The notes below the pieces were generated by a model. It made no database searches, had not been told where the DNA came from, and was given only the letters and a program-made list of their open reading frames with translations. From Patescibacteria group bacterium (GTDB taxonomy: Bacteria > Patescibacteriota > Microgenomatia > UBA12405), in contig JBMNON010000007.1 of assembly GCA_050943115.1 (NCBI GenBank), positions 1 through 53,150 of the forward strand: 53,150 nucleotides of DNA. The letters run 5' to 3'. Positions within the stretch are counted from its first letter, which is position 1; each line of letters opens with the position of its first letter. This document shows positions 20,101 to 53,033 of this stretch, piece by piece. A program made the translations under genes and the position numbers.

Positions 20101-21799
20101 CGTAAGAAATTACGCTTCCAAGTCTGGTTTGACCATTACCGCCATTGCCTCCGTGAGCTGCGCCTCCGGCACCCTTGTCTCCGTCAGCGCCATCTCCAGT
20201 ACCATTGCCATCAGAATAACCTTTACTATCTACATCGATAGAACCGGTAGAGTTTATTGTGAAGTCACCATCAACGTTATAGTTGATTTTGTAGGTGTCA
20301 GAGTTAGTATTGTCGGTATGAGTTAATGTGCCATTTATGGTGACACCTGAATAGCTTCGAGGAACATTGGCATGTAAGGTAGAGGTGGCTGGCACAATTA
20401 AGTTACCTCCTCCACTTAACATCGAGAAGGTACCTCCGTTATCGACTAAAATACCACCAGTCCAATCAAGAGAATTATAGTTAATATTCGCGCCAACATG
20501 ATTAAAAAAGTAGGCATTGTGATGTACAACAAGATTATTAACGGTAGCATTGTTGCTTAAACCAAAAAAGGCTTTTTGGTCAACTGTGAGGGATGATTCT
20601 ACATTAAGTACCGAAGTATATTCGATATCGGCAAAATTTGTTATTGTTAGATTATCGACTGTAAGATTGGAAGGTAGGGGGGTTTTGGCTAAGCGTGGGC
20701 GAGATGTGGACCAAACGATATCTTCATTGTCAACGACAATATCGCCGTATGTCGCAGAAACATTTTTTAGGAAAATTGTACCGGCGCCACCCTTTTGACA
20801 GTTGGTGTGATCACCATCAGGTTTAGCGCCTTGTACAGATATTTGTTCCAGAGTGACGCTACTTGAAGAATAATATAGTGCAATACGTCCACCGGCTCCA
20901 CCACCACCATCACCATAATAGGTATTGATAGTCCCTCCGCCTTCAGCAAGTAAATTACCACTACCATTTAAAGAGCCCGTTTGAATCCAGATTGATCCGC
21001 CGGAACCACCGCCGGAACCATGAGAATAATAATCAGAAGTAGAACTTCGAGCACCATTTGCAGAAATTGTTCCGTTAATCGTTGTTGTTCCCGATACTGT
21101 TAACTTTACTGCTCCTCCACCAACGCCAGACTGATTATTGTAGTCACCCCCTCCGCTTCCTAAAGTAACAGGTTGAGTTAGCGAACCGTAAGAGATAACC
21201 CCACCGGCCCTGGTCTGACCATTACCACCGAAACCACCGTGAGCAGCACCTCCGGCACCTCCGTTACCATCAGTACCCTCTCCCGGACCGGAACCTTTAC
21301 CATACCCTTTTGAATTAGCGTTTATAGTACCATGAACATAGGCGTTGCCGGATTGAACATCAATGTTGATTTTGCCGACTATTGAAGCACCGGAACCGGC
21401 AGTATGGGTAATGTTGCCTCCCGGATAGACAGTTAAATCACCGGCAGCTAGAGTAAGGGCACCAAGGGATATGGCGTCATAGGAGAACTCAAGAGATGAG
21501 GCAGCAGTATTATCTATTTTTCCTAATATAAGGGAATTTATAGTGACCGGTGAAGAAAGAATAACAGTAACATTGGAATCTATGAGAACGTCGTCGTCAG
21601 CAGCGGGGACAATATCAGTGTCCCAATTGAGAGGGTCAAGCCAGGAAGTACCATCGCCACCACCGTCCCAAATAATACTAGCGGCAGCCCGAATGTACCA
21701 AGTATGGAAAACAGGGAAGAGATAGACACTTGAGAAAAGACTGATGAAAAAAGCCGTCAGAATAAATACTCGTTTATTAAAAAGTTTCCTAATTTTCAT
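14111..21799 (-). CDS. Giant (2562 aa) surface protein: four ~362-aa Gly-rich beta-repeat units plus C-terminal FN3/Ig-like domains
   Basis: N-terminal anchor or signal; repeated KG(Y/F)...GAA(H/Y)GG.GGNG...GSGGG...GGRIA units; FN3-like segments (ISWTTS...YYFKARW, LTPAKVYHLRAIS). Confidence 0.9.
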   Translation of the reverse strand: MKIRKLFNKRVFILTAFFISLFSSVYLFPVFHTWYIRAAASIIWDGGGDGTSWLDPLNWDTDIVPAADDDVLIDSNVTVILSSPVTINSLILGKIDNTAASSLEFSYDAISLGALTLAAGDLTVYPGGNITHTAGSGASIVGKINIDVQSGNAYVHGTINANSKGYGKGSGPGEGTDGNGGAGGAAHGGFGGNGQTRAGGVISYGSLTQPVTLGSGGGDYNNQSGVGGGAVKLTVSGTTTINGTISANGARSSTSDYYSHGSGGGSGGSIWIQTGSLNGSGNLLAEGGGTINTYYGDGGGGAGGRIALYYSSSSVTLEQISVQGAKPDGDHTNCQKGGAGTIFLKNVSATYGDIVVDNEDIVWSTSRPRLAKTPLPSNLTVDNLTITNFADIEYTSVLNVESSLTVDQKAFFGLSNNATVNNLVVHHNAYFFNHVGANINYNSLDWTGGILVDNGGTFSMLSGGGNLIVPATSTLHANVPRSYSGVTINGTLTHTDNTNSDTYKINYNVDGDFTINSTGSIDVDSKGYSDGNGTGDGADGDKGAGGAAHGGNGGNGQTRLGSVISYGSATQPATIGSGGGHNNTFQAGHGGGAVKLIITGTFNVGGPVSANGGDSVTSDFYSHGSGGGSGGSIWINANEITGSSTISADGGGATNTYYGDGGGGGGGRIALYYDTNSVGLSQISAKGGIPQGDHSATQKGGAGTIYLKAATATNGDFVIDNKDNDWSTSRTRVAKTTLPSTLTLDNLAITNYSNIDYTSSLNVVSSLTLDQKSFLESSGGITADNLIVHNNATLFSQLGANIVYNTIDWNGGILVDNGGTFAILSSGVDLTIPSGSTLHSNVPRSYSNVFIDGVLTHTENIDSEVYKINYTIGGNLSISSSGSVNVNGKGFGIGYGTGEGTDGADGSGGAAHGGNGGNGRTRAGSIVPYGSATQPVTLGSGGGQVSGYGGAGGGAIKFIVGGYIDVGGPISANGNAGPSYSYDGSGGGGAGGSVWIDANEVKGGSTISASGGGSADGYSDKDGGGGGGGRIAIYYDSLPFAIDRIYAYGGKPSGAASTCQKGGAGTIYLKSSSISYGDLIVDNNDPNWSSLRSKVAKTVLPDSLNVSNITITDYSNIDYSSSLNVTSTIVIDQKSFFDLSGNLNVNTINLLNGSSFICQSSAAIDYTTLNWSAILVDNGCDFAVISTGGNLTIPSGATLETNIARHYDNVTVNGTLSHSENTNEEVNKLILAIDENLTVNPSGSINVNGKGYSDGYGPGTGVSGSNGAGGAAYGGEGGNGQSRAGNKVPYGEERSPDLLGSGGGHHGYAAGHGGGVIKISIGATATLNGVISANGGNGGLYDNYHGNGGGSGGSIWVTTETLIGSGSVTANGGNTANYTYDGGAGGGGRIALYYGTNTTNFSVLSVNGGVASGASAQNGGIGTIFLGGKSSDPLNLRQFKTDNTTAIGQGGNTDESSFIATFQVQDGDSEDTITPQVEIQTLGTPFSNVATNIGASVVYTGAIVTAQVTVDGLADTESYHWQARACDATNLCSDWVSYGNNTEDEADIRVVMNTPPSAPVIPESSFFINGQYTNSLQPMLSFVLSDPNAVDTVGYRIQVDTESEFGSPIIDYVSVQAAQGTQSFTVGQAAGEGTYNEGSEGQELSTDNYYWRVKAIDNKSGESDWTTATGTPSFIIDQSRPTNGANMKMKAHDEALHEYSHSDEPVWFNRNDLFFSWDDGSDAQGVKGYCVYLGNDLEGDPATQKGLLGSSPVSTTGTTCQFITADTEIDFSNSALRSYEWLTSSDDLYYFKIKTIDIANNTYVGPDETNYISFYFDNTAPENVVAISAASGTFSSTSDMFFTWPTTNGTAGNDEHSQVLGFQYAINSRDSWIGETLDPSTNLEYYSLGIAQPFYLPASAQDLIQLGQNTIFFRILDRAGNASELRTAFINYGGEAPKFAQGDFITVTPGQNDTNSFAFSWPEAEPSSGNTIDTYYYMINTPPPVSYATITSNSATYIATESTSIDTFTVPGLRKGANTIYVVAVDSNSNYSPTNTISATFYLYSELPDPPTNLTVADSSIKDVSIWRSSLVWSEPTYKGTGNLTYHIERSEDALTWEEVAQTTSFSYVDTVEESKRYYWRVGTTDNSDQSIASPSYSSAVSIIPKGSYTVPAPLTSGPASSSITTSKATISWTTSRTCDSKVAYGLASGNYFDDEAYRSVHITDHEIQLTNLSPGTKYYFKARWTDEDGNTGESDEMDFTTEPPPEVKEVRLSNVGISSALVNFTTKNATKAKIYYGTTTSFGGAKEVSTSKLETSYSVELNQLEDGTKYYYKINTFDEEDTEYEGTILDFETLPRPRVTNVRVQQVANTAQSTLLVTWESNTAISSIVTYYPENNPELVRDNVDIELRDGDHRMIIRGLFPDTGYVLRVRGQDIIGNEAVSDTVRVTTASDTRAPQISEMSVEGANSPPSNSTAQPALSQLIISWNTDEPATSQVEYGEGSGTDYNQLSQEDQNLSYNHVVIISGLTPAKVYHLRAISKDSAGNISKSIDTVTITPKATDNAFDLVITNLKEVFGFLGNL
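17600..21400 (-). repeat. Four diverged in-frame tandem units within the giant gene
   Basis: Equivalent Lys codons of the KG(Y/F) motif at 21308, 20222, 19133 and 18050 give spacings of 1086, 1089 and 1083 bp. Boundaries approximate. Confidence 0.85.
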
Positions 21800-23363: not shown

Positions 23364-25496
23364 TCAGGCGGTTTTTAGTTTGATGCTTCTTATGCTTAAA
23401 GCATTTACAACTACAATGACACTGGACAAACTCATGAGCAGAGCACCAACGGAGGGAGTAAGTTGAAACCCTAGAGGAATAAAAAGACCAGCAGCTGCAG
23501 GAATGGCAAGGATATTATAGCCAACTGCCCAAAAAAGATTTTGGATCATTTTTTTATAGACTTTTTTAGAGAGAATTATGAGGCGGACTACATGCTGGGG
23601 GTTGCTTTGTGTAAGAATGACATCGCCGGCTTCAAGGGCGATATCCGTTCCGGCACCGATGGCAACGCCGACATTCGCCTGGGTTAGAGCCGGGGCATCG
23701 TTGATACCATCACCGGCCATGAGCACAGTATAACCTTCGGATTGCAAATTTTTGACGTATGTATACTTTTCTTGAGGCAGAACTTGAGCGAATACCCTGT
23801 CAAGTTTTAGCTCATGGGCAACAAAGTCGGCAGCTACAGTGGAGTCACCGGTAAGCATGGCCACTTTTATGCCTATATTATGGAGCTGGCTTATGGTCTG
23901 ATAAGACTCATCTTTTATTTGATCGTCTAGAATAATCGCCCCAAGTATGTGGTTTTTGTCGGCTACATAAATAACAGTAGAACCTTTCCCGTCAATCTTA
24001 ATTGTGCGTTGTATTTCAGGTGTTATTAGCTTCTTTTTTTCCATAAAAGAGTGACTGCCGATAAAATAAGTTTGCCCTTTTAGCATAGCCCTGACACCAG
24101 AACCGGGAAGATTTACAAATTTGTTAACATCATAAAGGGGTACGTTCTTTTGTTTGGCATAATTAACAATCGCCTGACCAATAACGTGCGAGGACTGGTT
24201 TTCGATACTGGCAGCAATAGAGAGAAGTTGACGATTGTCAACCGAGAAGGGCTTGACTTCTGTTACCCCAAATTGACCGCGGGTAAGAGTGCCGGTTTTG
24301 TCAAAAATTACGTAGTCGGTATCCTTGGCAGATTCTATTTTGGCCATGTCTTTGATAAAAATTCCGTTATTGACAGCAAGACGGGTGGCAATTGTGGAAA
24401 CGGTGGGTATAGCCAAACCCAACGCATGAGGACAAGCAATGACGAGAACGGTAATAGCGAGAGTAATCGAAAAAACGAAAGTCCGCCCAAGAACCAGTGA
24501 CCAAACGATAAGGGTGGCAAGGGAAACAGCAAGGGCAGATAGGGTAAGCCATCCGGCCACCCGATCGGCCAGACGCTGAACAGCAGGCTTGGTTTGTTGG
24601 GCTTGGGAAACTAACTGTCGGATTTGACCAACAGTGGAAGATTCACCCACACGAGATAAACGCACTTCAACCGAGCCATCTAGATTTATGGCACCGGCAG
24701 AAACAGAATCACCTTTGCGTTTTTCCACAGGAAGGGATTCACCGGTAAGATGCGATTCATCAAAGTTACCAAAACCTTTAACTATTTCTCCATCAGACGG
24801 GACTTTTTCACCAGGCCTGACCAACACCCTATCCCCTTTCTTTAGGGTGACTGCGTCAACATCTCTCACACCACTTGTTGCTAGCAAATGAGCTTCCTTG
24901 GGAAGTAATCTGGATACTTCTTCCAAGGCATTACCAGCAGAAGTAGACGATCTGGCTTCCAGGTAGTGGCCAAAAAGAAGCACCCAAATAAGTGTAGAAA
25001 TCTCCAGATAAAATTCCGCTTCAATAACGGGAGACAGAGTTGAAATTAGCGAAAAAAGATAACCAGCACCCACACCAAGAGAAACCAAAGTCATCATGCC
25101 AAAGTTGCGCATTCTAATTTCATGCCAGGCGTGTTGAAAGAATATTAGGCCATAATAGAAAATGATGGATGCCAGAATAATCTGAGTGATGGGTCTTAGA
25201 GGAAAATCAGGAATATTAAGGACTCTAATGCCGGGAACGGACAAGCTAAATAACGGAATAAGGAGTAGAGTGACAGCATAAAACCTTTTGAGAAAATCTG
25301 AAGCGGCATTCGGACCAGCCAGCATAGCGGTATGATCATGCCCGGTCCTTACCTGGTGGAGTATGTGAGAAGTTTTTTCTCCGGGATGGGTAAGTTCTTT
25401 TTTAACAAGTTTCATGCCGCATTTTGGACAGTTACCCGGTTGACCGGTCTCAACTTCGGGATGCATAGGGCAATAGTATGATTTGGGGTGATTCAT
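23364..25496 (-). CDS. copB: Copper-translocating P1B-type ATPase (CopB-like)
   Basis: N-terminal YYCPMHPE...CPKCGMKL and His-rich stretch; TGES, CPHALGLA, DKTGTLT, GDGINDAPAL, YNILAIP. Confidence 0.88.
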   Translation of the reverse strand: MNHPKSYYCPMHPEVETGQPGNCPKCGMKLVKKELTHPGEKTSHILHQVRTGHDHTAMLAGPNAASDFLKRFYAVTLLLIPLFSLSVPGIRVLNIPDFPLRPITQIILASIIFYYGLIFFQHAWHEIRMRNFGMMTLVSLGVGAGYLFSLISTLSPVIEAEFYLEISTLIWVLLFGHYLEARSSTSAGNALEEVSRLLPKEAHLLATSGVRDVDAVTLKKGDRVLVRPGEKVPSDGEIVKGFGNFDESHLTGESLPVEKRKGDSVSAGAINLDGSVEVRLSRVGESSTVGQIRQLVSQAQQTKPAVQRLADRVAGWLTLSALAVSLATLIVWSLVLGRTFVFSITLAITVLVIACPHALGLAIPTVSTIATRLAVNNGIFIKDMAKIESAKDTDYVIFDKTGTLTRGQFGVTEVKPFSVDNRQLLSIAASIENQSSHVIGQAIVNYAKQKNVPLYDVNKFVNLPGSGVRAMLKGQTYFIGSHSFMEKKKLITPEIQRTIKIDGKGSTVIYVADKNHILGAIILDDQIKDESYQTISQLHNIGIKVAMLTGDSTVAADFVAHELKLDRVFAQVLPQEKYTYVKNLQSEGYTVLMAGDGINDAPALTQANVGVAIGAGTDIALEAGDVILTQSNPQHVVRLIILSKKVYKKMIQNLFWAVGYNILAIPAAAGLFIPLGFQLTPSVGALLMSLSSVIVVVNALSIRSIKLKTA

Positions 25497-41601: not shown

Positions 41602-41633
41602 CTAAAACATTAATAATTATTAATGTTTTGTCT
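41602..41633. repeat. Palindromic 32-bp repeat, copy 1
   Basis: CTAAAACATTAATAATTATTAATGTTTTGTCT; 26-bp perfect palindrome core. Confidence 0.9.
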
Positions 41634-43369
41634 TATAGATTATTTAGCTTATTAGCCAAGGCTTCCTGCTCTTTATATAACTCTTCGTCTTTGTATGTGT
41701 AATTTATTTCAGACTGGCTGAGCCATTGATTACTTTCCATCTTGGTAACAATAGTTTGAATGTTGCCGATTCTTATTGAAATGATCTCGTTAATTCGATC
41801 GTAATCTGCCTTATTTCTTTCATAAGCACTACCCCACTCTTTGACCTTCTGCCAACTGGGCTGAATATCCCGCAAGCTATTTAATACCGACTTCCAGCCA
41901 TCAATATCTGACTTTTTATAATTTGGAGGAACATAACCTCCGAACTCGTTAACTACCACCTGAACTTCGCAATCATTGATTTTTCCTACATAAACCCCAA
42001 GCCCGATATCCTGGAATCGTTTATCCAGGAGGTTTTCTTTTGTTTCATATTCCAGCCAGTAATTGGCAAGTTCTTCGGCGTCATAATAGCCAGTGGTACT
42101 GATTTCTCCGGTAAGAATATTATTATAACCGGCATCTTTAATAGCTTTGTCATAAGGGTATTTGCTTTTATCTTTTTCCAACTTACCAACTTCATTATTT
42201 TCAATAATTGATTTGGCTCGGGCGAGGGCGGCTTTTTCCAACTTTTCATTTCTCTTTAGCGGCTTTAGATTATTGTCGGTTCTTATTTTATTTATATGAG
42301 TGTAGTAATCGTCAATATTAAAAGAAGGTAATCCATGACTATCACCGTCTTTGCTAGCATCACGTTGTCTACTAATTAACTCTGCTTGTTTGCCAACGGG
42401 CAAGATACTACTGATTTCATTTAGTGATACAAAGCCTAGTTCTCGTGAATCTTTACTGCGTTTGCGATTATCACCCATGACAAAGACATAACCGTCGGGA
42501 ACGACAACCTTTTTACACTCACCTAAAAAAGCTGCCCCGAATGTGGATCTTGGCTTAGCAATATAAGGTTCTTTGACGATTTGACCGTTTAGGTAATAAT
42601 AACCGTCGCGTATTTCTATCTCATCTCCAGCAATTGCCACAACCCTTTTGACATAATCATTGACCTGACCTTGATCATTGGCGGTTCTACCAGAGCTGAA
42701 TATGACAATATCTCCCTTTTGAGGCTTGCTAATTAGCTTGTTAATAAATGAATAGCTATACATTTTGATACTCTCTTTATCTAGAATGGTCGGATTCATT
42801 GAATTACCAAGCACATCTCTTGAAAATGAAGTAAGCCCAAAGATATAGAAAAGGCCAAAGAAACCTATTATCCACATAGGCAATAAAATAAAGAAGCCAA
42901 AAAGTGTGTCACCAAGATTCCGCATAACAACAAAAGGTAAGAATACTAATGACCCGACGAATCGTAACATCTTCTTAAATCTATTTAGGTGGGGGTTGGT
43001 AGCAAGGGAATAATGAAGAGCAAAGGAAACCGTCATTACAATGAATGCAATTATTCCAACAACGACAATAGAAATGAGGCTTATTTGGGAGTAAATACTC
43101 GTAAGGTTCTTATCACTGGTATTAGACAGGACAACCGCGACTACGCCGAACATAGGCATGCTAATAAGCCAAATTATTCTGGATAAGGAAGCTGCTTTCA
43201 TCCATTTGGATTTTTTTGGCTTGGTACGGTTTGGGTTTTTATCACATGTTAGCTCGTGGCTGTCTGATTCCTTTTTTGTTTCAAACTCCTGTTGGCAATA
43301 ATCACAAGTCCAGACATAATCTTTTTTAACTTTTGTTTTTTGGGGCTTTAACTCGTGTCCTGATTTCAC
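41633..43369 (-). CDS. Fusion protein: Zn finger, TM segments, signal peptidase I (S26) domain, CAP/SCP domain
   Basis: CDYC..F.....HE..C; catalytic GNSMNPT and YVKRV, GDNR..SKDSR; CAP-like INKIR....L.RNEKLE.AA...GE.....W...ENLL...IGLG. Confidence 0.85.
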   Translation of the reverse strand: MKSGHELKPQKTKVKKDYVWTCDYCQQEFETKKESDSHELTCDKNPNRTKPKKSKWMKAASLSRIIWLISMPMFGVVAVVLSNTSDKNLTSIYSQISLISIVVVGIIAFIVMTVSFALHYSLATNPHLNRFKKMLRFVGSLVFLPFVVMRNLGDTLFGFFILLPMWIIGFFGLFYIFGLTSFSRDVLGNSMNPTILDKESIKMYSYSFINKLISKPQKGDIVIFSSGRTANDQGQVNDYVKRVVAIAGDEIEIRDGYYYLNGQIVKEPYIAKPRSTFGAAFLGECKKVVVPDGYVFVMGDNRKRSKDSRELGFVSLNEISSILPVGKQAELISRQRDASKDGDSHGLPSFNIDDYYTHINKIRTDNNLKPLKRNEKLEKAALARAKSIIENNEVGKLEKDKSKYPYDKAIKDAGYNNILTGEISTTGYYDAEELANYWLEYETKENLLDKRFQDIGLGVYVGKINDCEVQVVVNEFGGYVPPNYKKSDIDGWKSVLNSLRDIQPSWQKVKEWGSAYERNKADYDRINEIISIRIGNIQTIVTKMESNQWLSQSEINYTYKDEELYKEQEALANKLNNL

Positions 43370-43593: not shown

Positions 43594-44037
43594 TTATGCC
43601 TGTTGCCTTTTAAGAGCTTTCCAATCCAAGAATTCTACCTCACCACTTTCATCAACCAAAAATACATATAAGTTTAGTTTGTCACAGACATCATAAGGCA
43701 AACGTCTTTTTACTAGATCTCTAAAAGAAGCGGGGTAGCCTACCCCATATTTATATCTATATTTATAGCCTCTGGCTCCAGCTGACCTCATGCGGGTTAC
43801 AATCTGTCCAATAGCTAAATTAAAATTGACTTCTCTATGTGAGTTGGGAAATTTGGCTTTCGGGCTAGCATCACCTTTGCATTCAATTAACCAATAACGA
43901 GAAACTTTATCATTCCTAACTTTGATATCTACTCCATGCTCCTTTAGAGTTTTTGATTTTAGACTTTTACTCCAACCGTTTGTAGTTAGGTAATCGATAA
44001 TCCTTTCTTGAACAAAATCTTCTGTTAATAGAGTCAT
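43594..44037 (-). CDS. PD-(D/E)XK restriction-endonuclease-like protein
   Basis: ED.VQ..I..YL...GW, GVDIKV, LIECKG, AIGQI motif order. Confidence 0.75.
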   Translation of the reverse strand: MTLLTEDFVQERIIDYLTTNGWSKSLKSKTLKEHGVDIKVRNDKVSRYWLIECKGDASPKAKFPNSHREVNFNLAIGQIVTRMRSAGARGYKYRYKYGVGYPASFRDLVKRRLPYDVCDKLNLYVFLVDESGEVEFLDWKALKRQQA

Positions 44038-44038
44038 G

Positions 44039-45157
44039 TTAGTTAGGTATTCTGCTTGCTAATAAATTATGCAGTGTCCGGTCTTCAATTTTGAATAACT
44101 CATTTTTAATACCCGATATATTTTTTCCAATAAATATTTCCGGAGCATCAGGATTGATGATGTAATGCTCTACATTACTAAAACCTAACTCACGAAGTTT
44201 ATTAAGTAAACAAACTACAAAAAAGTTTATCGATATATAGAAGTAAGGTTCCCTCGGTTTAATAATATTTATCAAATCCTTAAAGATGAAATCATCACTA
44301 TATACAGTATCTCCATGGATAATCTTGTTTCTTAGTTTATAGAATTCCTCTGCCCAAATCTGGTGTAAGGTCAGTTGTTCATAACCTGTAACTTTACCGT
44401 AATTTACTATTGGATATTTATACTGTGTAAATTTTTTTGAGTACCCAATGGTTGAATATTTGAGAATATTGTTTCTAAGTTGAGGTCGCCCTGTCTCTCC
44501 GAATAATAATTCAAAAGCCATAACCATTAGTAAAATTCTTGAATGCCAAGATTGTTCATGACTATTCCGATAGGCATTAAAAAGCGGATTTAACGACTGA
44601 ATAATTTGGCTTTTACCTTTATTTGTTGATGAATTTGTCAGACAATCTTCTAAAGCATTTAGTATTTTCAAATCAGGATTGAAACTAATTGGTAGATTTA
44701 CATGCTCAGGTTTTTGAAACGCAACCTGTCCAATCTGATATCCGCCAGTAGTTATACGATGAATCGCTCCGGCTTGGGTAGAAATGCCAGTCTCACCAAC
44801 TATGAATCTCTGATAGAAAACTTCAAAGTTATCACTAGTAATAAATGACCATTGATTATTCTCCAAAATCCCAAGTAGTAGAAGTATATTTTTTAGTGAT
44901 TCGATTTTTGATATGGTTAACTGAGTTGGGTTAGAAAAGTTTATTTTATCGCCAGTAATTATTGCAGGATTTGGTACGGGATTTCCTTTGTAAAGCTGAT
45001 AGCAGCCTATTAGTTTATCAATGTGAGTTCTCAGGGCAGTATCCTTTATAAGCTTTATTTTGAATTTATTGTAAGGCCATAATTTCAATCCATTAAACTG
45101 AACCATTCCATTAAGTGGTAGATATGGCAGTAGAATTATTGTTTTATATACTTTCAT
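44039..45157 (-). CDS. HEPN-domain protein (ApeA-like architecture)
   Basis: N-terminal alpha/beta region; C-terminal MAFELLFG...FYKLRNKIIHG with the Rx4H motif. Confidence 0.72.
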   Translation of the reverse strand: MKVYKTIILLPYLPLNGMVQFNGLKLWPYNKFKIKLIKDTALRTHIDKLIGCYQLYKGNPVPNPAIITGDKINFSNPTQLTISKIESLKNILLLLGILENNQWSFITSDNFEVFYQRFIVGETGISTQAGAIHRITTGGYQIGQVAFQKPEHVNLPISFNPDLKILNALEDCLTNSSTNKGKSQIIQSLNPLFNAYRNSHEQSWHSRILLMVMAFELLFGETGRPQLRNNILKYSTIGYSKKFTQYKYPIVNYGKVTGYEQLTLHQIWAEEFYKLRNKIIHGDTVYSDDFIFKDLINIIKPREPYFYISINFFVVCLLNKLRELGFSNVEHYIINPDAPEIFIGKNISGIKNELFKIEDRTLHNLLASRIPN

Positions 45158-45861
45158 AATTCATCAGTAAGAACTGCCAATTCATCAATAGTTTTTCCTG
45201 TTCCTTTTTGGGCTATGTATTCCAAAAAATTAAATACGTGGTTCGTAATCCCCTTAAATTCTGGAATAATAAATGGTCGATGTAGAGAATAGTTTCGTTT
45301 AACCAAGAGGTAATCGAGTAATTGTTTACTATTAGGATATGGAGTCGTCATTCTAGTAATTCCATCTAGCTTCTGACCTTTTTCTTTTTTCTTGGCTGCT
45401 ATTTCGTCAGTAGATTGTTTATTATCAAAGTCCGTAAAATCTATAAGACTTGGTAAGTGGTCTTTGATATAACCCAGCATAACAACTTCAGTAGGGTCTA
45501 GCTTACTTTTATTCTGGCTTAATTTTAATGGATGGACCAAACCATTTGGAACTGGTTGCTTAATTTTGTTGATAGCGTAGCCTTTAGCCAAAAATATCCC
45601 CTTAAATAGGTACTCACAACCTAATGAGGTAAAAGCGTTTTCTAACCGAGGATTTTTCAATATTTCTTGACGTTTTCTTTCATCCCATGGAGTATGGATA
45701 TTAGAAAGTCTTTGGGCTTCTTTAATCAAATAGGCTCCTGTCCTAATAAAATCGTCCGATTCTTGAGATGTGAATATATGTCTTACAAACGAACTATTTT
45801 TGAACTTATCTATTGACGGATTAAACCATAATCTATTTATCTGATTATGAAGTAGTGCCAT
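45154..45861 (-). CDS. Putative HEPN-like protein
   Basis: SLGCEYLFKGIFL helix (ExxxK) and KRNYSLH (Rx4H); ATGA overlap with the next gene. Confidence 0.55.
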   Translation of the reverse strand: MALLHNQINRLWFNPSIDKFKNSSFVRHIFTSQESDDFIRTGAYLIKEAQRLSNIHTPWDERKRQEILKNPRLENAFTSLGCEYLFKGIFLAKGYAINKIKQPVPNGLVHPLKLSQNKSKLDPTEVVMLGYIKDHLPSLIDFTDFDNKQSTDEIAAKKKEKGQKLDGITRMTTPYPNSKQLLDYLLVKRNYSLHRPFIIPEFKGITNHVFNFLEYIAQKGTGKTIDELAVLTDEL

Positions 45862-46021: not shown

Positions 46022-46693
46022 TTAATCAAAAAAATTACCTACAAGACAGGACTCAATGATTTGATCCATTGATTGTCCTCTTAATGTTTGGATATAGCTT
46101 TCTAGTTCTTTGAGGTCAGGTTTATCGTTGCCTTCGGGGTTGGTGAGAACGACCAAGGATTCTTTGAGTTTTTCAATTTTTTCTTTGGGTAACCCTCTTT
46201 TTTGGAGATTTTCACCATAATAGTGGTAGAACATGAAATGATTTAGTTCGTGCTTGGCAACGCTTAAATGTTTTTCGGCTGTATTGTTGCGGTAGGTCAT
46301 AAACCAACGGTCTTCGAAAGAGTAGGGCTGGATGGTTAGTGTGGTTAAATAAACAGTAATTTTGTCAAAGGAAAATGGTTTGCCATAAACTGATTCGAGA
46401 ACATTGATGATTTCGTCTTGATGAGTATTAAGTAATGTTTCTATCCCCAAAACCAAAAGAGGGGTGGTGTTGAGGTAACTTTTAGGTAAAGTTGTTAAAA
46501 AATCGGTTATTATCTCCTTGGCATCTTGTTTAGTTTTGGCTTTAGCAATTTCCTTTCTAAATTGTTCGGGTAGTGTGGCTAGAAGTTTAGTTTGAATATT
46601 ATCACGCCCATGCTTGAGATAAGTGAACTTCCAAACTGAATTTAAATAGTTATTAGTATCTTTATCGATTGAGTAGTCAACAATAAATTTCAT
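46022..46693 (-). CDS. Hypothetical protein with HExxH zincin-like motif
   Basis: VAKHELNHFMFY followed by KESL; TATACT 5 nt upstream of ATG. Confidence 0.65.
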   Translation of the reverse strand: MKFIVDYSIDKDTNNYLNSVWKFTYLKHGRDNIQTKLLATLPEQFRKEIAKAKTKQDAKEIITDFLTTLPKSYLNTTPLLVLGIETLLNTHQDEIINVLESVYGKPFSFDKITVYLTTLTIQPYSFEDRWFMTYRNNTAEKHLSVAKHELNHFMFYHYYGENLQKRGLPKEKIEKLKESLVVLTNPEGNDKPDLKELESYIQTLRGQSMDQIIESCLVGNFFD

Positions 46694-46719
46694 GATTTAG
46701 TATAAATGAATTTTTTTTC

Positions 46720-46806
46720 GTAAAGCGCTGACACCTATATGGTGTTTTTAGAGGTGAGCCCTCCCACTTGGGGTAGGAGGGCTCCTCCGATGCTTCAGCG
46801 CTCTAC
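46720..46806 (-). ncRNA. Three-way-junction RNA structure downstream of the peptide gene (function unknown)
   Basis: P1 GUAGAGCGCU/AGCGCUUUAC, P2 GAG-GAGCCCUCC/GGAGGGCUC-ac-CUC, P3 ACACC/GGUGU. Confidence 0.55.
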
Positions 46807-46818
46807 GCTCCCTCTGGT

Positions 46819-46974
46819 TCAGCCGTCAGAGCTGTCGCAGTAGTCGCAGGCATCCTGATCACAGGAGTCGCTATCGCAACCCCCGTAGTCGCAGCTGCCT
46901 CCACCACTGTCGCAGGAGTCGCAGGCCGTCATGACAACCTGCTCGTCATCGATGAGAGAGATAATGTGGTTCAT
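46819..46974 (-). CDS. Putative RiPP precursor peptide, 51 aa with seven Cys-Asp motifs (absent from the ORF track)
   Basis: MNHIISLIDDEQVVMTACDSCDSGGGSCDYGGCDSDSCDQDACDYCDSSDG*; SD AAGGAG inside the last codons of the rSAM gene; starts 1 nt after its TGA. Confidence 0.85.
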   Translation of the reverse strand: MNHIISLIDDEQVVMTACDSCDSGGGSCDYGGCDSDSCDQDACDYCDSSDG

Positions 46975-46975
46975 G

Positions 46976-48286
46976 TCATTCTCCTTGTTGCAGAATCCTT
47001 TTTGTTACAAGTTGGCCGATAAGATTGGTCGCCTCAGGATGGTCCAGACCGAGGTAGCTCCTCAGTTCTTCAAATAGTACATCACCTCCTTTCCTTTCTG
47101 TGGCAAACTTGAATAGTTCGGGAGATACAGGGACCCAGCTCCTTACACCTATACACAGTAGACCCCCAAACGATTCCTCCCGAAGCTTTAACTTTGGGTT
47201 GAACCTCAGTGGAGTCTGGGAATCAAACTGTGAGACAGGCCGAAGCGAAGCAAGTGGCCTGAGTGGAATTCGATCGAAGTTGCAGTATGGATCTGGCTTG
47301 TTGATTGAGCCATTTACCAATAGCGCTTCGATTTTACACCCACCGCCACAACGCTTCTTGAGATTACACGATTGACACTCGTCAGGGATCCAAGCCTCTT
47401 GGCGCCACTCCTCCATGCTATCCCAGGCTTGTTGAATACCATCGAACACGCTGCCGTAGCACTGAGGTGCGTGGGAACAAGGCCGTATCTGTCCGTTGAA
47501 ACCGATAGTACAACTGGTTTTGCCAGCGGTACAGCTTCGTGAGGATCCGAACAACCTTCTGGTGGTATCATTGCCAAACGAACAGCCCGGATAAAACTCC
47601 AAAGAGTCTATCCTTAGTCCAAGTTCTTGTTTGGCTCTGGCCAGTTCATCGAGCATAAACCCGAATTCTGCTGGCGTTAACCGATAGGCCGAAAAGTCCT
47701 GGCAGTTTCCCGGAACGGCCGCCTTGGTTGCTGAAAAGGTGTTGACCCCCAGCTTCTTAACAAAGCAAGCAGTTTCGAAGATTTCTGTCAGGTTGAGCTT
47801 GGTTACTACCATGTTAACAGTAACGTTCAATCCTGCGTTAAGAGCACGCTTGATGCCTCTTGCTGTCCTGCTTCTCGAATTCCTCCTTTGAGTGATTAGA
47901 TCGTTTGTCTCGGAGTTACCCGAGGGCAGTGATGCCAGAACGGATTTGATGCCAAGCTCTTTAAGCTTTGCAGCATCACTATCGGTTAGCGTTGAGAGAT
48001 TGCTGTTGAGATAGATATCTACTCCAGCTTCCCGCAGCATAACCAGATACGGTAACAATGCACCAAGGACCAAGAGTGGTTCTCCGCCAGTTACGGTCAC
48101 CGCAAGAACACCATTCCTGATGATCTCGGTAACCGAGGCTAAATAGTACCTCCTTGTTTCTTCAGTCAATGGTTGTACCGCCGTCTCGTCTTCACGCCAA
48201 TGGTTATAACAATGAACGCAATTGTAATTGCATTCAGGAGTCACTTCCCACTGGACATAGACAGGTGCCGATAGTTTCCTAAACAT
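46976..48286 (-). CDS. Radical SAM/SPASM peptide-modifying enzyme with probable C-terminal PqqD-like (RRE) domain
   Basis: CNYNCVHC, TGGEP, NSN; SPASM CTAGKTSCTI...IRPC...CQSCNLKKRCGGGC...DPYC; C-terminal LREESFGGLL...winged helix. Start ATG 48286 with SD AAGGAG. Confidence 0.92.
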   Translation of the reverse strand: MFRKLSAPVYVQWEVTPECNYNCVHCYNHWREDETAVQPLTEETRRYYLASVTEIIRNGVLAVTVTGGEPLLVLGALLPYLVMLREAGVDIYLNSNLSTLTDSDAAKLKELGIKSVLASLPSGNSETNDLITQRRNSRSRTARGIKRALNAGLNVTVNMVVTKLNLTEIFETACFVKKLGVNTFSATKAAVPGNCQDFSAYRLTPAEFGFMLDELARAKQELGLRIDSLEFYPGCSFGNDTTRRLFGSSRSCTAGKTSCTIGFNGQIRPCSHAPQCYGSVFDGIQQAWDSMEEWRQEAWIPDECQSCNLKKRCGGGCKIEALLVNGSINKPDPYCNFDRIPLRPLASLRPVSQFDSQTPLRFNPKLKLREESFGGLLCIGVRSWVPVSPELFKFATERKGGDVLFEELRSYLGLDHPEATNLIGQLVTKRILQQGE

Positions 48287-48934
48287 GGCGCTCTCCTTAA
48301 TAGAGAATAATATGTCCACAATATGTAAAGGTGCTTGAAGGCTAGTCTTCAAACCTTCACTCAAGTTAATACTTGATGGCATATTCTACCATTCTTTACG
48401 TTGTTTACAACATGACTGTCCTATATGTTTATTTAATCCGTACTACACTAAAGGGTTGGTTTTATTAAAATAATTGGGGTTGAAGTTTTTTCTTAGACAA
48501 AGACTGTTCCCCGCCATCACTGAAATATGGAATCCAGCGAGAAAGAATGATCTTGGGGACGGAACAGTTTCTGGCTAGGGTTGCTTGTTATAGGTTAAGC
48601 TCAGATGTTAAAATTTGTAGTACTCTAAAATTTCCGTTTTTTTGCTGGAGCCGGCAAGAGGTTCGAATCCTAACCAGTTTCAACAAAAAACAGTGTCGAG
48701 CGTTACTAAAGATATCTTCCGTATTTCCGGGACTAAGGAGGAAAATCCGATGGCGAAAAAAACTAATTACTGTCTTGGTTAGTTTGGTAATTACCTATCA
48801 GTCCGTAACTTTCTACTGGGTTAGGAACAGCCGGCTTGCGACAAAAGAACGGAAATTATTTAACTCTCAGAGATTCGAAATTTTTTTGGTAATCTAGTGC
48901 CCTCCTGGGTTGACTTGTTTCTTGAAAATGAGCA

Positions 48935-50029
48935 CTATAACCAAAATTCAGGTTCAGTTATCAAATTTTTCATAAATTTGGAAAAAGTTTCTTGCTTTAT
49001 ACCTAATCGATTGCTGCCTATCTGAAGAACATCAATACTATAGTTTAATTTCCCATCCTCAAATCCAATTGAATAAAATGGAATAAATACAACATCATCC
49101 TTTAGTTTTAAATAGTACGGATACATCTCGCCACTCATACGAATAACTTGTGTCTCGATTCCATTCCTATTTGCATCTAGTGGCACCATAAACCATGGTA
49201 TTGCTTTGTAACCCACTTTTTTTGACTGAACAATCACCTTTGTAATATGCTCTTTGATTTCATCAATTACACTGCCATAGTCACCACCAAGCTGAATAAA
49301 CACTCTGGATTCAAGTATATTTAGCTGTAAATCTGAATTTGGCACTGGGTTACTATTCAAAATAATGTCAACATTACTAGTTCTTAAGTTCTTTTCCTCG
49401 TTGAAATTAACTTTCTTTAAGACTTTCTTAATTTCGTCAATATCCACACTCTTTAAAATTACCCATACGTTTTGCTTTGAAACTGAAGAGAATGCATCAA
49501 CAAGCTCTTCTCTAACTTTTAACACAAGATGCTCAATCAGAAACCTTTTGTTCGGAACAAGTTTGGCATCTAACGCAAATGAACCAAGCTCAGAATGAGT
49601 TATCTCAAGATCTGGACGGCCTTCTTGAGTTGAAGAATTAAACTTAATTTCTAAACCCAAGTGCTTACAATATCCTCCAGCAATTAATTCATTGAGAGTT
49701 ACTAGAAATGGTCCATAACCATTTGAAAAAATACGTCGGGCAACTTCGTTTAAATAATTATCATTTAATTTTAAATCGCCTTTGAGTAGCTTAAACAAAC
49801 AACAAGTAATTTTAAAGTAATAATAGCCATTATTAGCTATTTGTTGAGAGTTGTTTTGTCTAATCTTACCGTCACTAGTTATCCACGTTGTCTTAAGAAT
49901 AAAGTCAAAAAAAGGATTTAGTACTATGCTTGGTTTGGGGTTGTTTTTTACCTTACCAATTTTGTCAGCCAACAACTCTTCGCCAATGGTGTCTATCAGG
50001 TAGAAAAGAAGATTTGAGTACCTAGGCAT
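48935..50029 (-). CDS. Hypothetical protein with PD-(D/E)XK nuclease-like motif
   Basis: LNELIAGGY...GRPDLEI...FALDAKL; AT-rich. Confidence 0.6.
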   Translation of the reverse strand: MPRYSNLLFYLIDTIGEELLADKIGKVKNNPKPSIVLNPFFDFILKTTWITSDGKIRQNNSQQIANNGYYYFKITCCLFKLLKGDLKLNDNYLNEVARRIFSNGYGPFLVTLNELIAGGYCKHLGLEIKFNSSTQEGRPDLEITHSELGSFALDAKLVPNKRFLIEHLVLKVREELVDAFSSVSKQNVWVILKSVDIDEIKKVLKKVNFNEEKNLRTSNVDIILNSNPVPNSDLQLNILESRVFIQLGGDYGSVIDEIKEHITKVIVQSKKVGYKAIPWFMVPLDANRNGIETQVIRMSGEMYPYYLKLKDDVVFIPFYSIGFEDGKLNYSIDVLQIGSNRLGIKQETFSKFMKNLITEPEFWL

Positions 50030-50212
50030 AAATTATTTTAACCCTTGCTCCCCCGCGTGTTGGACACAAGAACACGAGAGTGGATAAAGAGTTATTTAAT
50101 GCTCGCCAATTGGAACCGATTCCGGATGAATTGTACTATTTAATGCTCCGACAAATGGAAATATTCGAAACTTTTATCTTAGAGTTTAGATAATAAATTA
50201 GTAAATATATGA

Positions 50213-50650
50213 TTAATAACTAGGTACTGGGTTAATTCTACAATCATAATTACCTTTAATATTTGAATTGTAGTAGGTACCAAATGAACTGGCTTGTTTA
50301 AAAGATGACCAAGCAGAAGAGGGTAAACCACAATAGTGATAATATTTTCCGTTTAAATTAATAATCATATATTTATTTTGACTGTCATACCAAACTCCGT
50401 TTACAAAAGAGCTTTTTGATGTGTGAACCTTTTCCCAACGACTATGATTGATGTCAACTGGGTCGTTTCGGTACTGGACGTTGATATAATTAGTGGGATT
50501 ATCTACTGTTTTATACTCGGAATTAGATTGAAATTGAGTTGGCTCAGAAGAGGTGCAACCTGATAAGACAAAACACGATACTATTACAACAATGAAAAAT
50601 TTTAATAGTTGTTTTATTTTTAAACTATTAAGTTGTAGTTTTGTGGTCAT
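50213..50650 (-). CDS. Lipoprotein with C-terminal KTSC domain
   Basis: Lipobox VLSGC; SSFV.GVWYD...M.I...GKYYHY.G.P...W.SF.QASSFGTYYN..IKGNY. Confidence 0.8.
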   Translation of the reverse strand: MTTKLQLNSLKIKQLLKFFIVVIVSCFVLSGCTSSEPTQFQSNSEYKTVDNPTNYINVQYRNDPVDINHSRWEKVHTSKSSFVNGVWYDSQNKYMIINLNGKYYHYCGLPSSAWSSFKQASSFGTYYNSNIKGNYDCRINPVPSY

Positions 50651-50654
50651 ATTA

Positions 50655-51056
50655 TTATAGCCTGCAGTTAGCTTTTGCCTGTAAATATAACGGTTTTAAT
50701 TCTTTCATTTTATTAGCTCTTGCTAGATTACTTTCTTTAAGTTCTACTTCGGCTCTGTCTATCCTCATTTGAATACACTCATCAATACCAGGAAAAGGCA
50801 TTGAGCCACACTCGTCTTTTATTTGAGTTAAATATCTGTCCTCCTCCATACAAGCCTTAATAGGGTCTATTGTTGGCGTCGATATTTTTGTCGGTGTTAA
50901 TTTTACCGTCATGTTGTTGGCTGGTGTTTCCGTTGGGATAGTTGTAGGCACAATAACACCTGTAGGTGTTGGGGTCTTTACTGTTGGTTGTTTAAGTGAG
51001 CAAGCTGATAAAAGGAAGCCTGTCAAAAGAATCCCTCCAAGTGTTTTAAGTTTCAT
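50655..51056 (-). CDS. Putative lipoprotein with Pro/Thr-rich linker
   Basis: Lipobox LLSAC; PT repeats; four further Cys. Confidence 0.75.
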   Translation of the reverse strand: MKLKTLGGILLTGFLLSACSLKQPTVKTPTPTGVIVPTTIPTETPANNMTVKLTPTKISTPTIDPIKACMEEDRYLTQIKDECGSMPFPGIDECIQMRIDRAEVELKESNLARANKMKELKPLYLQAKANCRL

Positions 51057-51283
51057 TTTTTATTTAGTAAATAATATTATTTGTATTTTTGGGACACAAC
51101 TATTTATACAATCTGTAGTACTAAATTTTCACACCCACCCAAAACTCTTGATAAATCTGGTAGGTGATTGTTTGTTAAACGAGAATCTCTTGCCTTGGAA
51201 TATTTGTAGAATGAGTAATCAAAAACGAATCCTATGAACACTAAGATAAACTCCATTAATTAAGAATATAATAAGTTTGTGGG

Positions 51284-51299
51284 TGTGACAAATCTCACT
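51284..51299. promoter_or_regulatory. Crp-type box between divergent genes
   Basis: TGTGA-CAAATC-TCACT, 9/10 match. Confidence 0.5.
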
Positions 51300-51373
51300 T
51301 ATAGTAGGAGTATTTGCAGTAATAATTATTATTAAAACTTTCTCTTGGTTTTCTTTAGTGAGATAATTAATAC

Positions 51374-52120
51374 ATGAAAAGATTTTTTGTGTTATTACTT
51401 GCCATCCTATTAGTGGTTGGATTTCTATTAAAAGACGAGTGGTTGGGAGAAAATAATATTAGCCAGAACACCGGATTCGTCCAAGATCAGCGTGAATATG
51501 GAAGTAGTGATGGGCTTGCTGAATCAGAACAATACAAGATGATCAGTTGTCCGGAAATTACAATCTTGGCAAATAAGACTCTTCAAGCAGAGATTAACGA
51601 GATTAATAGAATGCTAACAGATGCCGTGGTTCAGGATGAGAATATGGAAAATGCCATAGAGACTGAGTCACATGAAGAAATCCCCCGAGGTCCGGATAAC
51701 GATTTTTTAGGTGTTTATTGTGAGACCACAAGAAATGACAATGTAGTTTTTTCACAAAAAGTTAATCAGACTACTTATGGGGCTGGGGCTGTACACTCAA
51801 ACAACAGTGTTGAAACAATGAATTATTCTGTAAAAACCGGAGAGGAGCTCAACTTAGATGATTTATTTGAGCCAAACTCTGATGGTAAAATAACCTTGAC
51901 TAGATTAGTTGTGGCAAAGCTAAAAACTGATTTGGGTGAAGTTCTTAACAAGGAAATTGCAGAAACCCAGGAAGGAGAGGAGTTAGAGTTTGATCTATTT
52001 TTGGTTGAGAGTGATGGATTGAGAATATTGTTTAATCAATATGCCATTGCACCTAGTAGCGCTGGAATTGTAGAGGTGAAACTGTCTCGAGACGAATTGG
52101 GGTCTAGCTATTTGTATTAA
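51374..52120 (+). CDS. DUF3298/DUF4163 (RsiV/PdaC-like) membrane-anchored protein
   Basis: YGAGAVHSN....NY.VKTGE.L.LDDLF; GLRILFNQYAIAP..AGIVEV. Confidence 0.85.
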   Translation: MKRFFVLLLAILLVVGFLLKDEWLGENNISQNTGFVQDQREYGSSDGLAESEQYKMISCPEITILANKTLQAEINEINRMLTDAVVQDENMENAIETESHEEIPRGPDNDFLGVYCETTRNDNVVFSQKVNQTTYGAGAVHSNNSVETMNYSVKTGEELNLDDLFEPNSDGKITLTRLVVAKLKTDLGEVLNKEIAETQEGEELEFDLFLVESDGLRILFNQYAIAPSSAGIVEVKLSRDELGSSYLY

Positions 52121-52126
52121 GGTCGG

Positions 52127-52508
52127 TTATTTTACCGCCTCAATATCTTCAACAACGATATTTTCAACACATTTTTCTGAATTGTCATATTCACACTCAT
52201 CAAGTTGGACACCGGTAATTTTGAATACGGAGTTCTGATTATTATTGATTAAACTTTTCCATTCATCTGAGTCTTGATCTCCAAAGGTAAAATTAGGTGA
52301 AGCATAAAACCAAAGATCTACTTCATTTATTATTTAATTTGTTTAACTTGCATATCTTACTCATTGATTCAAACGTAACCGTTTTTTTAGTTTACATTTC
52401 TATAGCCTTCAATGGATGTCGTATGCTGAACAGACCCGTAATGCGGGCAAATGAGTGCCGTATCAGAGATATTTATGGTTTACATTCTGGGCAGTTTATT
52501 AAGGCCAT
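52127..52508 (-). pseudogene. Degraded zinc-ribbon-domain gene
   Basis: MALINCPECK* then, offset, ISDTALICPHYG...; a separate open 3' segment ends at TAA 52127. Confidence 0.55.
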
Positions 52509-52589
52509 TGTTTAGTGATTATTGTTTTATATTGGTAATAAACATCCGAGTAACAAAAATTGAGAATAATTAAGTTTTCTGACTGAATA

Positions 52590-53033
52590 TTAAACACTAA
52601 AGACTAATGCTATAAATATAAGAACTAGCAAAACTAAAAAGATTATTCCAATAATTTTCAAGATTTTTAGCATAACTTTTCTCATTTTAACTAGGCCTTC
52701 AATTTCATTCTCTACCTGTTCTTCTTTTCTTGCAGTACTGAAACCTAGTTTTGAGCTGATGGTATTAACAAAACCGGAAATGACGCCTGTTAAATAATGA
52801 ACTATGCCATATAGCAAGAAAATTCCAATAACATAAATGAAGTTAGTAAATGAGTTTTCAAGCCCATCACATTGTGAATTATGGGTCGACCCTTTGATGT
52901 TAACTACTAAACATTTTCCTTGAGACTGGAGATAAGAAATATAAAGAAACAGCAAAACAGGCAGACCAACAACTGCTCCAATTAACCAATAAGTAGTACT
53001 ATTATCTTTTTTTTGTACCATATTTTTGTTCAT
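52590..53033 (-). CDS. Hypothetical membrane protein
   Basis: Three hydrophobic segments; no family recognised. Confidence 0.7.
   Translation of the reverse strand: MNKNMVQKKDNSTTYWLIGAVVGLPVLLFLYISYLQSQGKCLVVNIKGSTHNSQCDGLENSFTNFIYVIGIFLLYGIVHYLTGVISGFVNTISSKLGFSTARKEEQVENEIEGLVKMRKVMLKILKIIGIIFLVLLVLIFIALVFSV

Follow-up and report, generated by a model that had tools for sequence, protein, structure and literature searches.

A radical SAM/SPASM peptide maturase cassette with a Cys-Asp-rich precursor from Patescibacteria

The window analyzed here, a 53,150-nucleotide (nt) stretch of contig JBMNON010000007.1 from a Patescibacteria group bacterium, contains a self-contained three-gene cassette for a peptide made by ribosomes and modified after translation (RiPP). 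The cassette, all coordinates of which refer to the minus strand, consists of the genes for a radical S-adenosylmethionine (SAM)/SPASM peptide maturase, a short precursor peptide built of Cys-Asp units, and a small protein with an HExxH motif. By analogy with characterized SPASM enzymes, we favor, with moderate confidence, a pathway in which multiple Cys-derived thioether bridges are introduced into the precursor. The kind of system, a radical SAM/SPASM maturase combined with a Cys-rich precursor, is familiar. The cassette family itself is large, typical of the candidate phyla radiation (CPR) and uncharacterized: neither the enzyme nor the precursor nor the HExxH protein of the window falls within a curated family, and a literature search (open-access text only) yielded no earlier description of the system. 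Together with the similar peptides that adjoin homologues of the enzyme, these results uphold the proposal, made in an initial annotation of this DNA, that the locus represents an undescribed class of RiPP loci.

The precursor is a peptide of 51 amino acids (aa). Its predicted 34-residue core has the composition C7 D10 S7 G6 Y2 Q1 A1, with nothing else present, and Asp directly follows each of the seven Cys. Recounting thus reproduced the restricted composition and the Asp after every Cys (7/7) reported in the initial annotation, as well as the three Cys with an Asp at +4; these Cys-X3-Asp pairs (C18/D22, C43/D47 and C46/D50) are the only ones in the peptide. The Cys-Asp adjacency is unlikely to be due to chance, given that only 22 of 1,000,000 shuffles of the core placed Asp behind all seven Cys, and its conservation across loci is stronger evidence than the shuffles. 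Nearly identical leaders, MNHMIVSLVEEEQVV and MASQIISLVDEEQAV, occur in close relatives; the boundary between leader and core is a predicted one.

In the clade to which the window belongs, the adjacency is maintained at substantial divergence of the enzymes. Loci L081 and L170 (72% and 71% enzyme identity, respectively) share a core with Asp after 10 of 10 Cys; loci L082-L084 (70%) encode two precursors, with Asp after 12 of 12 and 6 of 6 Cys; L173 (54%) encodes one precursor with Asp after 13 of 13 Cys; and in the single precursor of L172 (57%), Asp follows five of the seven core Cys. Counted without redundancy, the five precursors from the window, L081/L170, L082-L084 and L173 have Asp after 48 of 48 Cys, and this adjacency stays constant while the number of units (6, 7, 10, 12 or 13) and the length of the spacers vary. 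The block CDSGGGSCDYGGCDxDSCDxDACDYCD is common to the window, L081, L170 and L173, the enzymes of which are 54-72% identical. The genes around the cassette differ among the genomes of the window, L081 (411-kb contig) and L082 (241-kb contig); what is conserved is the cassette itself and not its surroundings. The two Cys-Asp precursors of L082 (7315-7521 and 7636-7776), and likewise those of L083 and L084, are arranged in tandem behind a single enzyme gene.

The enzyme and precursor genes of the window are translationally coupled. The stop codon of the enzyme and the start codon of the peptide are joined as TGA-C-ATG, with 1 nt between them, and AAGGAG is located 6 nt 5' of each start codon (46981-46986 for the peptide and 48293-48298 for the enzyme), so that the coupling and the separate Shine-Dalgarno sequence described in the initial annotation can be read directly in the DNA. 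For the enzyme, we prefer the ATG at 48286 because the N-terminus MF(R/K)KLSAP, common to the homologues in an alignment of 29 sequences, begins there; the longer open reading frame (ORF), to 48382, has an N-terminal extension shared with no homologue. A promoter-like site 5' of the enzyme gene would overlie the ATG at 48382 and exclude that start, also favoring 48286; the consensus scan that identified this site is weak, with 2 sites found vs 3.3 expected from shuffles. The enzyme-precursor-HExxH arrangement is conserved, and in four independent sequencing runs, from other samples, an identical enzyme is encoded ahead of the peptide ORF and the HExxH gene. Three of these runs have the same peptide as the window; in the fourth (L169, 1744-1899), where the cassette is otherwise identical, a C18Y replacement abolishes the first Cys-Asp unit.

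Among the candidates scored, 292 homologues of the enzyme were identified at E <= 1e-10. The best 80 loci in one-per-species genomes come mostly from Patescibacteria/CPR, including Daviesbacteria, Shapirobacteria, WWE3, Uhrbacteria, Kaiserbacteria, Paceibacterota, Levybacteria, Saccharibacteria and others, whereas the distant members of the family (27-32% identity) come from metagenome-assembled genomes (MAGs) of Clostridia and one MAG of Woesearchaeota; taxonomy was taken from the record titles, and some third-party labels look unreliable. In most descriptions, CPR/Patescibacteria have almost no natural-product pathways, and the initial annotation considered such a locus unexpected in a reduced CPR-type genome; by the record titles, however, most of the enzyme family is from Patescibacteria/CPR MAGs, a distribution that by itself would suggest a CPR origin for the window. 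A metagenome scan added few further close relatives among the matches listed.

Pairing of the enzyme with a precursor was assessed by searching for a small, same-strand ORF with a Cys cluster that starts between -60 and +500 nt from the enzyme stop. Such an ORF follows the enzyme in 84 of the 98 loci with enough downstream sequence, vs 15 of 68 and 14 of 78 control anchors. Whether homologues have similar adjacent peptides, the question on which the initial annotation made its proposal depend, is answered by these counts, with the controls at about 20%. Common to the paired ORFs is a brief hydrophobic stretch in the leader (G[IFYL]VSL, FFVN or GFETIL; IISLI in the window), and their C-terminal cores are Cys-rich and mostly acidic, with some loci encoding two different precursors. 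Among distant family members, there are cores without any Asp, even with Gly after Cys, e.g. CYCNCGCACHVTG. In three Levybacteria-type loci (L026, L034 and L045), a Pro/Cys-rich peptide, CISPNPPLPPPC...PPPPC...CYGG, with the leader motif VPQFVSIL, lies ~720-740 nt past the enzyme stop and represents a quite different type of core associated with the same enzyme family. Genes for SAM-dependent methyltransferases (Methyltransf_11) are located just 5' of the enzyme homologues in L172 (251-1024; 57%) and L174 (582-1286; 52%) and may encode extra tailoring enzymes in some cassettes; in L174, no precursor adjoining the enzyme was detected.

The 436-aa enzyme belongs to the radical SAM superfamily, with 73.5 bits for Pfam Radical_SAM (PF04055; cut-off 29.5) and with C19, C23 and C26 of the CxxxCxxC motif invariant across the 29 aligned sequences. 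Pfam Fer4_12 also matches the enzyme, and Pfam SPASM scores 16.9 bits, under its cut-off of 21.5. The 7-Cys pattern of the SPASM subfamily (Cx9-15Gx4C ... Cx2Cx5Cx3C ... C) is complete: C235, C252, C259, C270, C304, C307 and C313 are invariant in the alignment, C317 nearly so and C334 is mostly conserved, and, by analogy with anSME and SuiB, the SPASM cysteines would fit two auxiliary clusters. In Foldseek searches with the AlphaFold2 (AF2) model (pLDDT 90), SkfB, the top match, PqqE, SuiB and anSME are about equally near (E ~1e-15 to 1e-13, 16-20% identity), and PDB sequence searches agree with these structural neighbors. The identification of a radical SAM/SPASM enzyme in the initial annotation is thus borne out by the Radical_SAM score, the full Cys pattern and the maturase fold. 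Assignment within the superfamily is less specific, given that no NCBIfam equivalog cut-off is reached. The best NCBIfam match is GeoRSP (TIGR04303; 116 bits vs a cut-off of 400), followed by AhbD, NirJ2, MftC (80 bits) and PqqE (73 bits, and 84 bits in the PDB sequence search). By its score against the PapB model NF047865 (51.4 bits vs 340), the enzyme is not a member of the PapB family; the AlbA model yields 54 bits vs a cut-off of 850, and the AlbA and StsB models together span ~52-54 bits vs cut-offs of 625-850. The PADLOC match to pVip (78.8 bits) covers the radical SAM core only, reflects generic superfamily similarity and does not count as evidence for a role in defense; automated viperin-type labels from PADLOC would be misleading for this enzyme.

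The C-terminal portion of the enzyme is a candidate RiPP recognition element (RRE); RREs are leader-binding winged helices in which three beta strands are followed by three helices. In the AF2 model, strands 359-362, 367-371, 374-380 and 383-387 precede helices 389-397, 405-412 and 416-428. NCBIfam MftB, the model of the mycofactocin chaperone, which is an RRE of the PqqD family, is weakly matched by 17 of 26 such domains (best E 3.6e-4); otherwise, the domain profiles match only winged-helix proteins, also weakly. A profile search of 1.84 billion proteins brought up, for the most part, members of this enzyme family that carry the domain C-terminally and, in addition, some short proteins. Taking the model and these matches together, an RRE at the C-terminus is likely but not proven.

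In the HExxH protein, KHELNHFMF (H148, E149 and H152) and E178 are invariant among 36 homologues and, at the sequence level, constitute the gluzincin pattern; the AF2 model of this protein has a pLDDT of 96. By tblastn, 17 of the first 85 loci have a homologue directly 3' of the precursor; homologues are likewise present in L166-L170 and L173. About 100 homologues are present in the databases, all annotated no further than "hypothetical protein". When the neighbors in 101 family loci were clustered, the HExxH proteins of 220-280 aa located next to the precursor fell into four groups, represented in 29, 16 (window type), 13 and 9 loci, for a total of 67. The largest of these clusters is Pfam Peptidase_MA_2, above the gathering threshold, and the window-type cluster is weakly similar to another HExxH cluster in hhalign (E 0.0012, probability 19%). 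Judging from its motif and recurrent position, the HExxH protein belongs integrally to the cassette and is probably proteolytic, a conserved third component rather than the weak peptidase candidate of the initial annotation. Locus L173 encodes, 5' of the enzyme (517-1329), a 270-aa protein with an HExxH motif of its own (HEQIH), which is a second candidate metalloprotease.

In the thioether pathway that we favor, the leader would dock via its hydrophobic IISLI strand onto the C-terminal winged-helix domain. The cluster held by C19, C23 and C26 would cleave SAM, the resulting 5'-deoxyadenosyl radical would remove a hydrogen at one of the core's carbons, the acceptor, and a Cys thiolate, probably bound to an auxiliary SPASM cluster, would then close the thioether. 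This reaction would be repeated at up to seven Cys-Asp units, after which the HExxH protein would cut off the leader, releasing a peptide of ~34 residues with many thioether bridges and many negative charges. Because Cys-Asp adjacency is the sole invariant geometry, with variable spacers and unit numbers, recognition or modification most likely acts on the Cys-Asp dyad, and the likeliest acceptor is Asp, at either its beta or its alpha carbon. The literature offers direct precedent: PapB joins Cys to Asp/Glu by thioethers and tolerates, in vitro, substrates of the form Cys-Xn-Asp with n = 0-6, adjacency included (PMC9413430), and C-beta thioethers to Asp and Asn are found in freyrasin and NxxcA (PMC8326336). 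The product could be a signal, an antagonist or a cation binder.

Several observations weigh against this pathway or against individual parts of it. Only three of the seven Cys are in the PapB-type Cys-X3-Asp register, and the Asp-free cores of distant members mean that Asp cannot serve as acceptor throughout the enzyme family. By sequence, the enzyme stands closer to the models of GeoRSP, AhbD/NirJ, MftC and PqqE than to those of PapB or AlbA, and, to our knowledge, none of these nearer families with known chemistry forms a thioether. The C-terminal RRE put forward in the initial annotation retains the order of strands and helices and the weak MftB matches in its favor but not membership in PqqD, for which neither the domain nor its short stand-alone relatives gave a Pfam match. 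The HExxH protein has no significant match in Pfam, NCBIfam, PADLOC or PDB sequences, and although its top Foldseek matches in the PDB are mostly zinc metallopeptidases (M1 catalytic domains, EryP, selecase, LasB and IrrE), none of them is significant (best E 0.48). Finally, no transporter or immunity gene is present at the cassette, where the initial annotation likewise saw no dedicated transporter, and none is conserved among the family loci; therefore, an extracellular role is not indicated.

Some of these points would be accommodated if the same cassette performed other chemistry, such as formation of alpha-carbon (sactionine) thioethers to whichever residue is nearby, oxidation of Cys, epimerization, or a C-C or C-O cross-link, with Asp serving only for recognition or metal binding. 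Asp-free, Cys-Gly cores beside homologous enzymes would fit an acceptor-agnostic alpha-carbon or Cys-centered chemistry, the folds of anSME, SkfB, PqqE and SuiB are about equally close, and the top NCBIfam similarity is to enzymes that, where the chemistry is known, do not form thioethers; anSME oxidizes Cys, and formylglycine or a thioaldehyde would be candidate products of such a reaction. We nevertheless regard this possibility as less likely than the favored pathway because the presence of Asp after 48 of 48 Cys in the clade of the window suggests a direct part for Asp, and known SPASM enzymes acting on Cys-plus-acidic motifs, PapB and QhpD, make non-alpha thioethers. The favored thioether pathway also has a bolder version, in which the bridge is closed within each Cys-Asp dyad, producing six- or seven-membered S-heterocycles; the resulting 6-13 rings with free carboxylates would be used by CPR bacteria as a cation or metal binder or as an episymbiotic signal and would be processed by minimal HExxH peptidases. 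We consider this version unlikely; if true, it would mean a ring-string scaffold not yet seen in natural RiPPs and a previously unrecognized HExxH family.

It is quite improbable that, as for PQQ or mycofactocin, the peptide acts inside the cell, as precursor or scaffold of a cofactor or of a metal- or Fe-S-binding peptide, instead of yielding a secreted, cross-linked natural product. PqqE and MftC are among the nearest models, the C-terminal domain resembles MftB, genes for export or immunity are absent, many small CPR genomes contain the cassette, and the CxC and Cys-Asp-rich cores appear to resemble metal-binding motifs. However, the great variation of cores, unit numbers and lengths, together with the presence of two precursors in some loci, is typical of diversifying natural products and not of a cofactor with a fixed structure, and the cassette is found in different, variable neighborhoods. 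As for the existence of the precursor gene itself, the ORF is short and of low complexity, gene callers skipped it on two of the four contigs with the identical cassette, searching proteins with the peptide retrieves nothing beyond its own variant, and the peptide matches no NCBIfam model. The view that it is not a real gene, or has no functional tie to the enzyme, is effectively refuted by the comparative sequence data, given the translational coupling and strong Shine-Dalgarno sequence, the homologous ORFs at the same position family-wide, far above control rates, and the conservation of both leader and core at 54-72% enzyme identity.

Among the characterized systems, PapB with its precursor PapA (freyrasin) is similar in combining a radical SAM/SPASM maturase with a precursor that contains repeated Cys-plus-Asp motifs, and freyrasin, a ranthipeptide, contains several small thioether rings to Asp C-beta. 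Ranthipeptides as a class have thioether bridges to carbons other than the alpha carbon, whereas in sactipeptides, the Cys sulfur is bridged to the alpha carbon. In PapB-type enzymes, the RRE is at the N-terminus, whereas the RRE-like domain described here is C-terminal; the repeated Cys-X3-Asp/Glu of the freyrasin type is replaced by the adjacent Cys-Asp dyad, with three of the seven Cys in register, and the cassette has a small HExxH protein as a partner. SCIFF peptides, with the maturases CteB and Tte1186, share short cores that are Cys-rich and C-terminal, the pairing of each precursor gene with just one radical SAM/SPASM maturase gene, a wide spread within one lineage (Clostridia for SCIFF, CPR here) and the lack of a clear antibiotic role. 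Unlike SCIFF, however, the precursor matches nothing, the leader motif and core composition are different, CteB aligns with the enzyme over the SPASM part only, and there is no SCIFF model among the best 25 of the 65 NCBIfam matches of the enzyme. The same best 25 matches include no model of QhpD, a SPASM enzyme that forms Cys-to-Asp/Glu thioethers and is not known to carry an RRE; its substrate QhpC is part of an enzyme, as the gamma subunit of quinohemoprotein amine dehydrogenase, and its Cys and acceptor residues are separated by long stretches of variable length. PqqE-PqqD, MftC-MftB and the uncharacterized GeoRSP provide the best sequence-level matches of the catalytic part, but the enzyme scores far under the cut-offs of the PqqE, MftC and GeoRSP families, and PqqE and MftC employ a separate chaperone protein and form C-C bonds on Glu/Tyr or Val/Tyr, not in Cys-rich cores. 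The sactisynthases AlbA, SkfB and ThnB are radical SAM/SPASM enzymes that also use Cys donors, although SkfB shows only 20% identity despite its top Foldseek rank; sactisynthases have an N-terminal RRE and produce nested hairpin bridges rather than tandem repeat units. The FibroRumin Cys-rich RiPP model TIGR04135 weakly matches precursors of the CYCHCACACHV type from distant family members (E 0.012; 15.6 bits vs a cut-off of 45) and does not match the window peptide; the FibroRumin system is itself uncharacterized, and we found no paper on it in open-access text.

With hundreds of enzyme homologues and diverse cores, this compact radical SAM RiPP cassette is widespread in the CPR and offers a small two- or three-gene testable system for new thioether or other Cys chemistry. 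The adjacent Cys-Asp units would represent a new substrate logic, the C-terminal RRE-like domain a distinct enzyme architecture, and the unannotated HExxH peptidase family could become a tool for leader removal. The cassette may also hint at the means by which ultra-small symbionts send signals to neighboring cells or compete with them.

Table 1. Features of the cassette and its immediate surroundings in the window
Feature	Coordinates	Strand	Basis
HExxH protein, 223 aa, predicted zinc metallopeptidase (leader peptidase)	46022..46693	-	motif, position, AF2
Nested GC-rich RNA stem-loop, then A-run	46719..46807	-	folding, covariation
Precursor ORF, 51 aa, MNHIISLIDDEQVVMTACDSCDSGGGSCDYGGCDSDSCDQDACDYCDSSDG	46819..46974	-	ORF, Shine-Dalgarno sequence, homologues
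Precursor stop codon	46819-46821	-	
Predicted core CDSCDSGGGSCDYGGCDSDSCDQDACDYCDSSDG, seven Cys-Asp units, Ser/Gly-rich spacers	46822..46923	-	composition, conservation
Predicted leader MNHIISLIDDEQVVMTA, hydrophobic motif IISLI	46924..46974	-	leaders of relatives
Radical SAM/SPASM peptide maturase, 436 aa, with C-terminal RRE-like domain	46976..48286	-	Pfam, alignment, AF2
Winged-helix/RRE-like domain, residues ~359-436	46979..47212	-	AF2, weak MftB matches
SPASM region C235, C252-x12-G265-x4-C270, C304-x2-C307-x5-C313-x3-C317, C334	47285..47584	-	alignment
CxxxCxxC (C19, C23, C26), predicted SAM-binding [4Fe-4S] cluster	48209..48232	-	invariant in alignment
Promoter-like site TTGTAA-16-TAGAAT with TG, 5' of enzyme gene	48383..48410	-	consensus scan

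The spacer of 125 nt between the precursor and the HExxH gene harbors a stable RNA stem-loop, with a minimum free energy of -53.1 kcal/mol (z -6.4) and none of 200 shuffles folding as well. Its sequence and pairing are kept in L081, L082 and L170, with five pairs changed on both sides, i.e. compensatory, in a comparison that comprises only three independent sequences. We rejected a canonical intrinsic terminator after the peptide because the stem-loop is followed by an A-run, with no U-tract, and the terminator scan makes no call. A role in stability of the precursor transcript or in attenuation of read-through is plausible. Between the stem-loop and the HExxH gene (46694-46718), a -10-like TATACT ends ~6 nt before the ATG of this gene, which has no Shine-Dalgarno sequence, and TATAAT or TATACT is found at a similar distance 5' of the HExxH ATG in L081 and L082. 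This box could be the gene's own promoter, producing a leaderless or short-leader mRNA.

The enzyme/peptide region has a GC content of 0.48-0.52 vs 0.31-0.37 in the flanks. We do not interpret this difference as recent horizontal transfer of the cassette because the GC content at third codon positions (GC3) of the enzyme gene, 0.49, is close to that of core genes (0.35-0.46), and it is the flanks that are AT-rich outliers: GC3 is 0.25-0.30 in 43594-45861 and 48935-53033 vs 0.35-0.46 elsewhere in the window. In relatives, too, the syntenic HExxH gene is AT-rich. The flanking genes, which are hypothetical, have no match in Pfam, NCBIfam or PADLOC, except for a sub-threshold match to NOV_C (restriction-endonuclease-like) at 43594-44037, and the AT-rich flanks look like a variable or acquired region. 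A candidate tRNA remnant or att site at ~48640-48680 (GGTTCGAATCC) was dismissed, with nothing detected there by ARAGORN or Rfam, as was a mobile-element origin, given that no plasmid record matched and no relative was found on viral contigs. In L173, a phage-type integrase gene is located at the opposite end of the locus.

Elsewhere in the window, 21 kb from the cassette, 23364-25496 encodes a heavy-metal P-type ATPase (HMBD + E1-E2 ATPase); nothing found here ties it to the cassette, although it would be relevant if the peptide binds metal. Two further genes, unrelated to the cassette, encode proteins with unusual architectures, namely, a 2562-aa protein with fibronectin-III/Ig-like repeats (14111-21799) and a fusion of signal peptidase S26 with a CAP domain (41633-43369).

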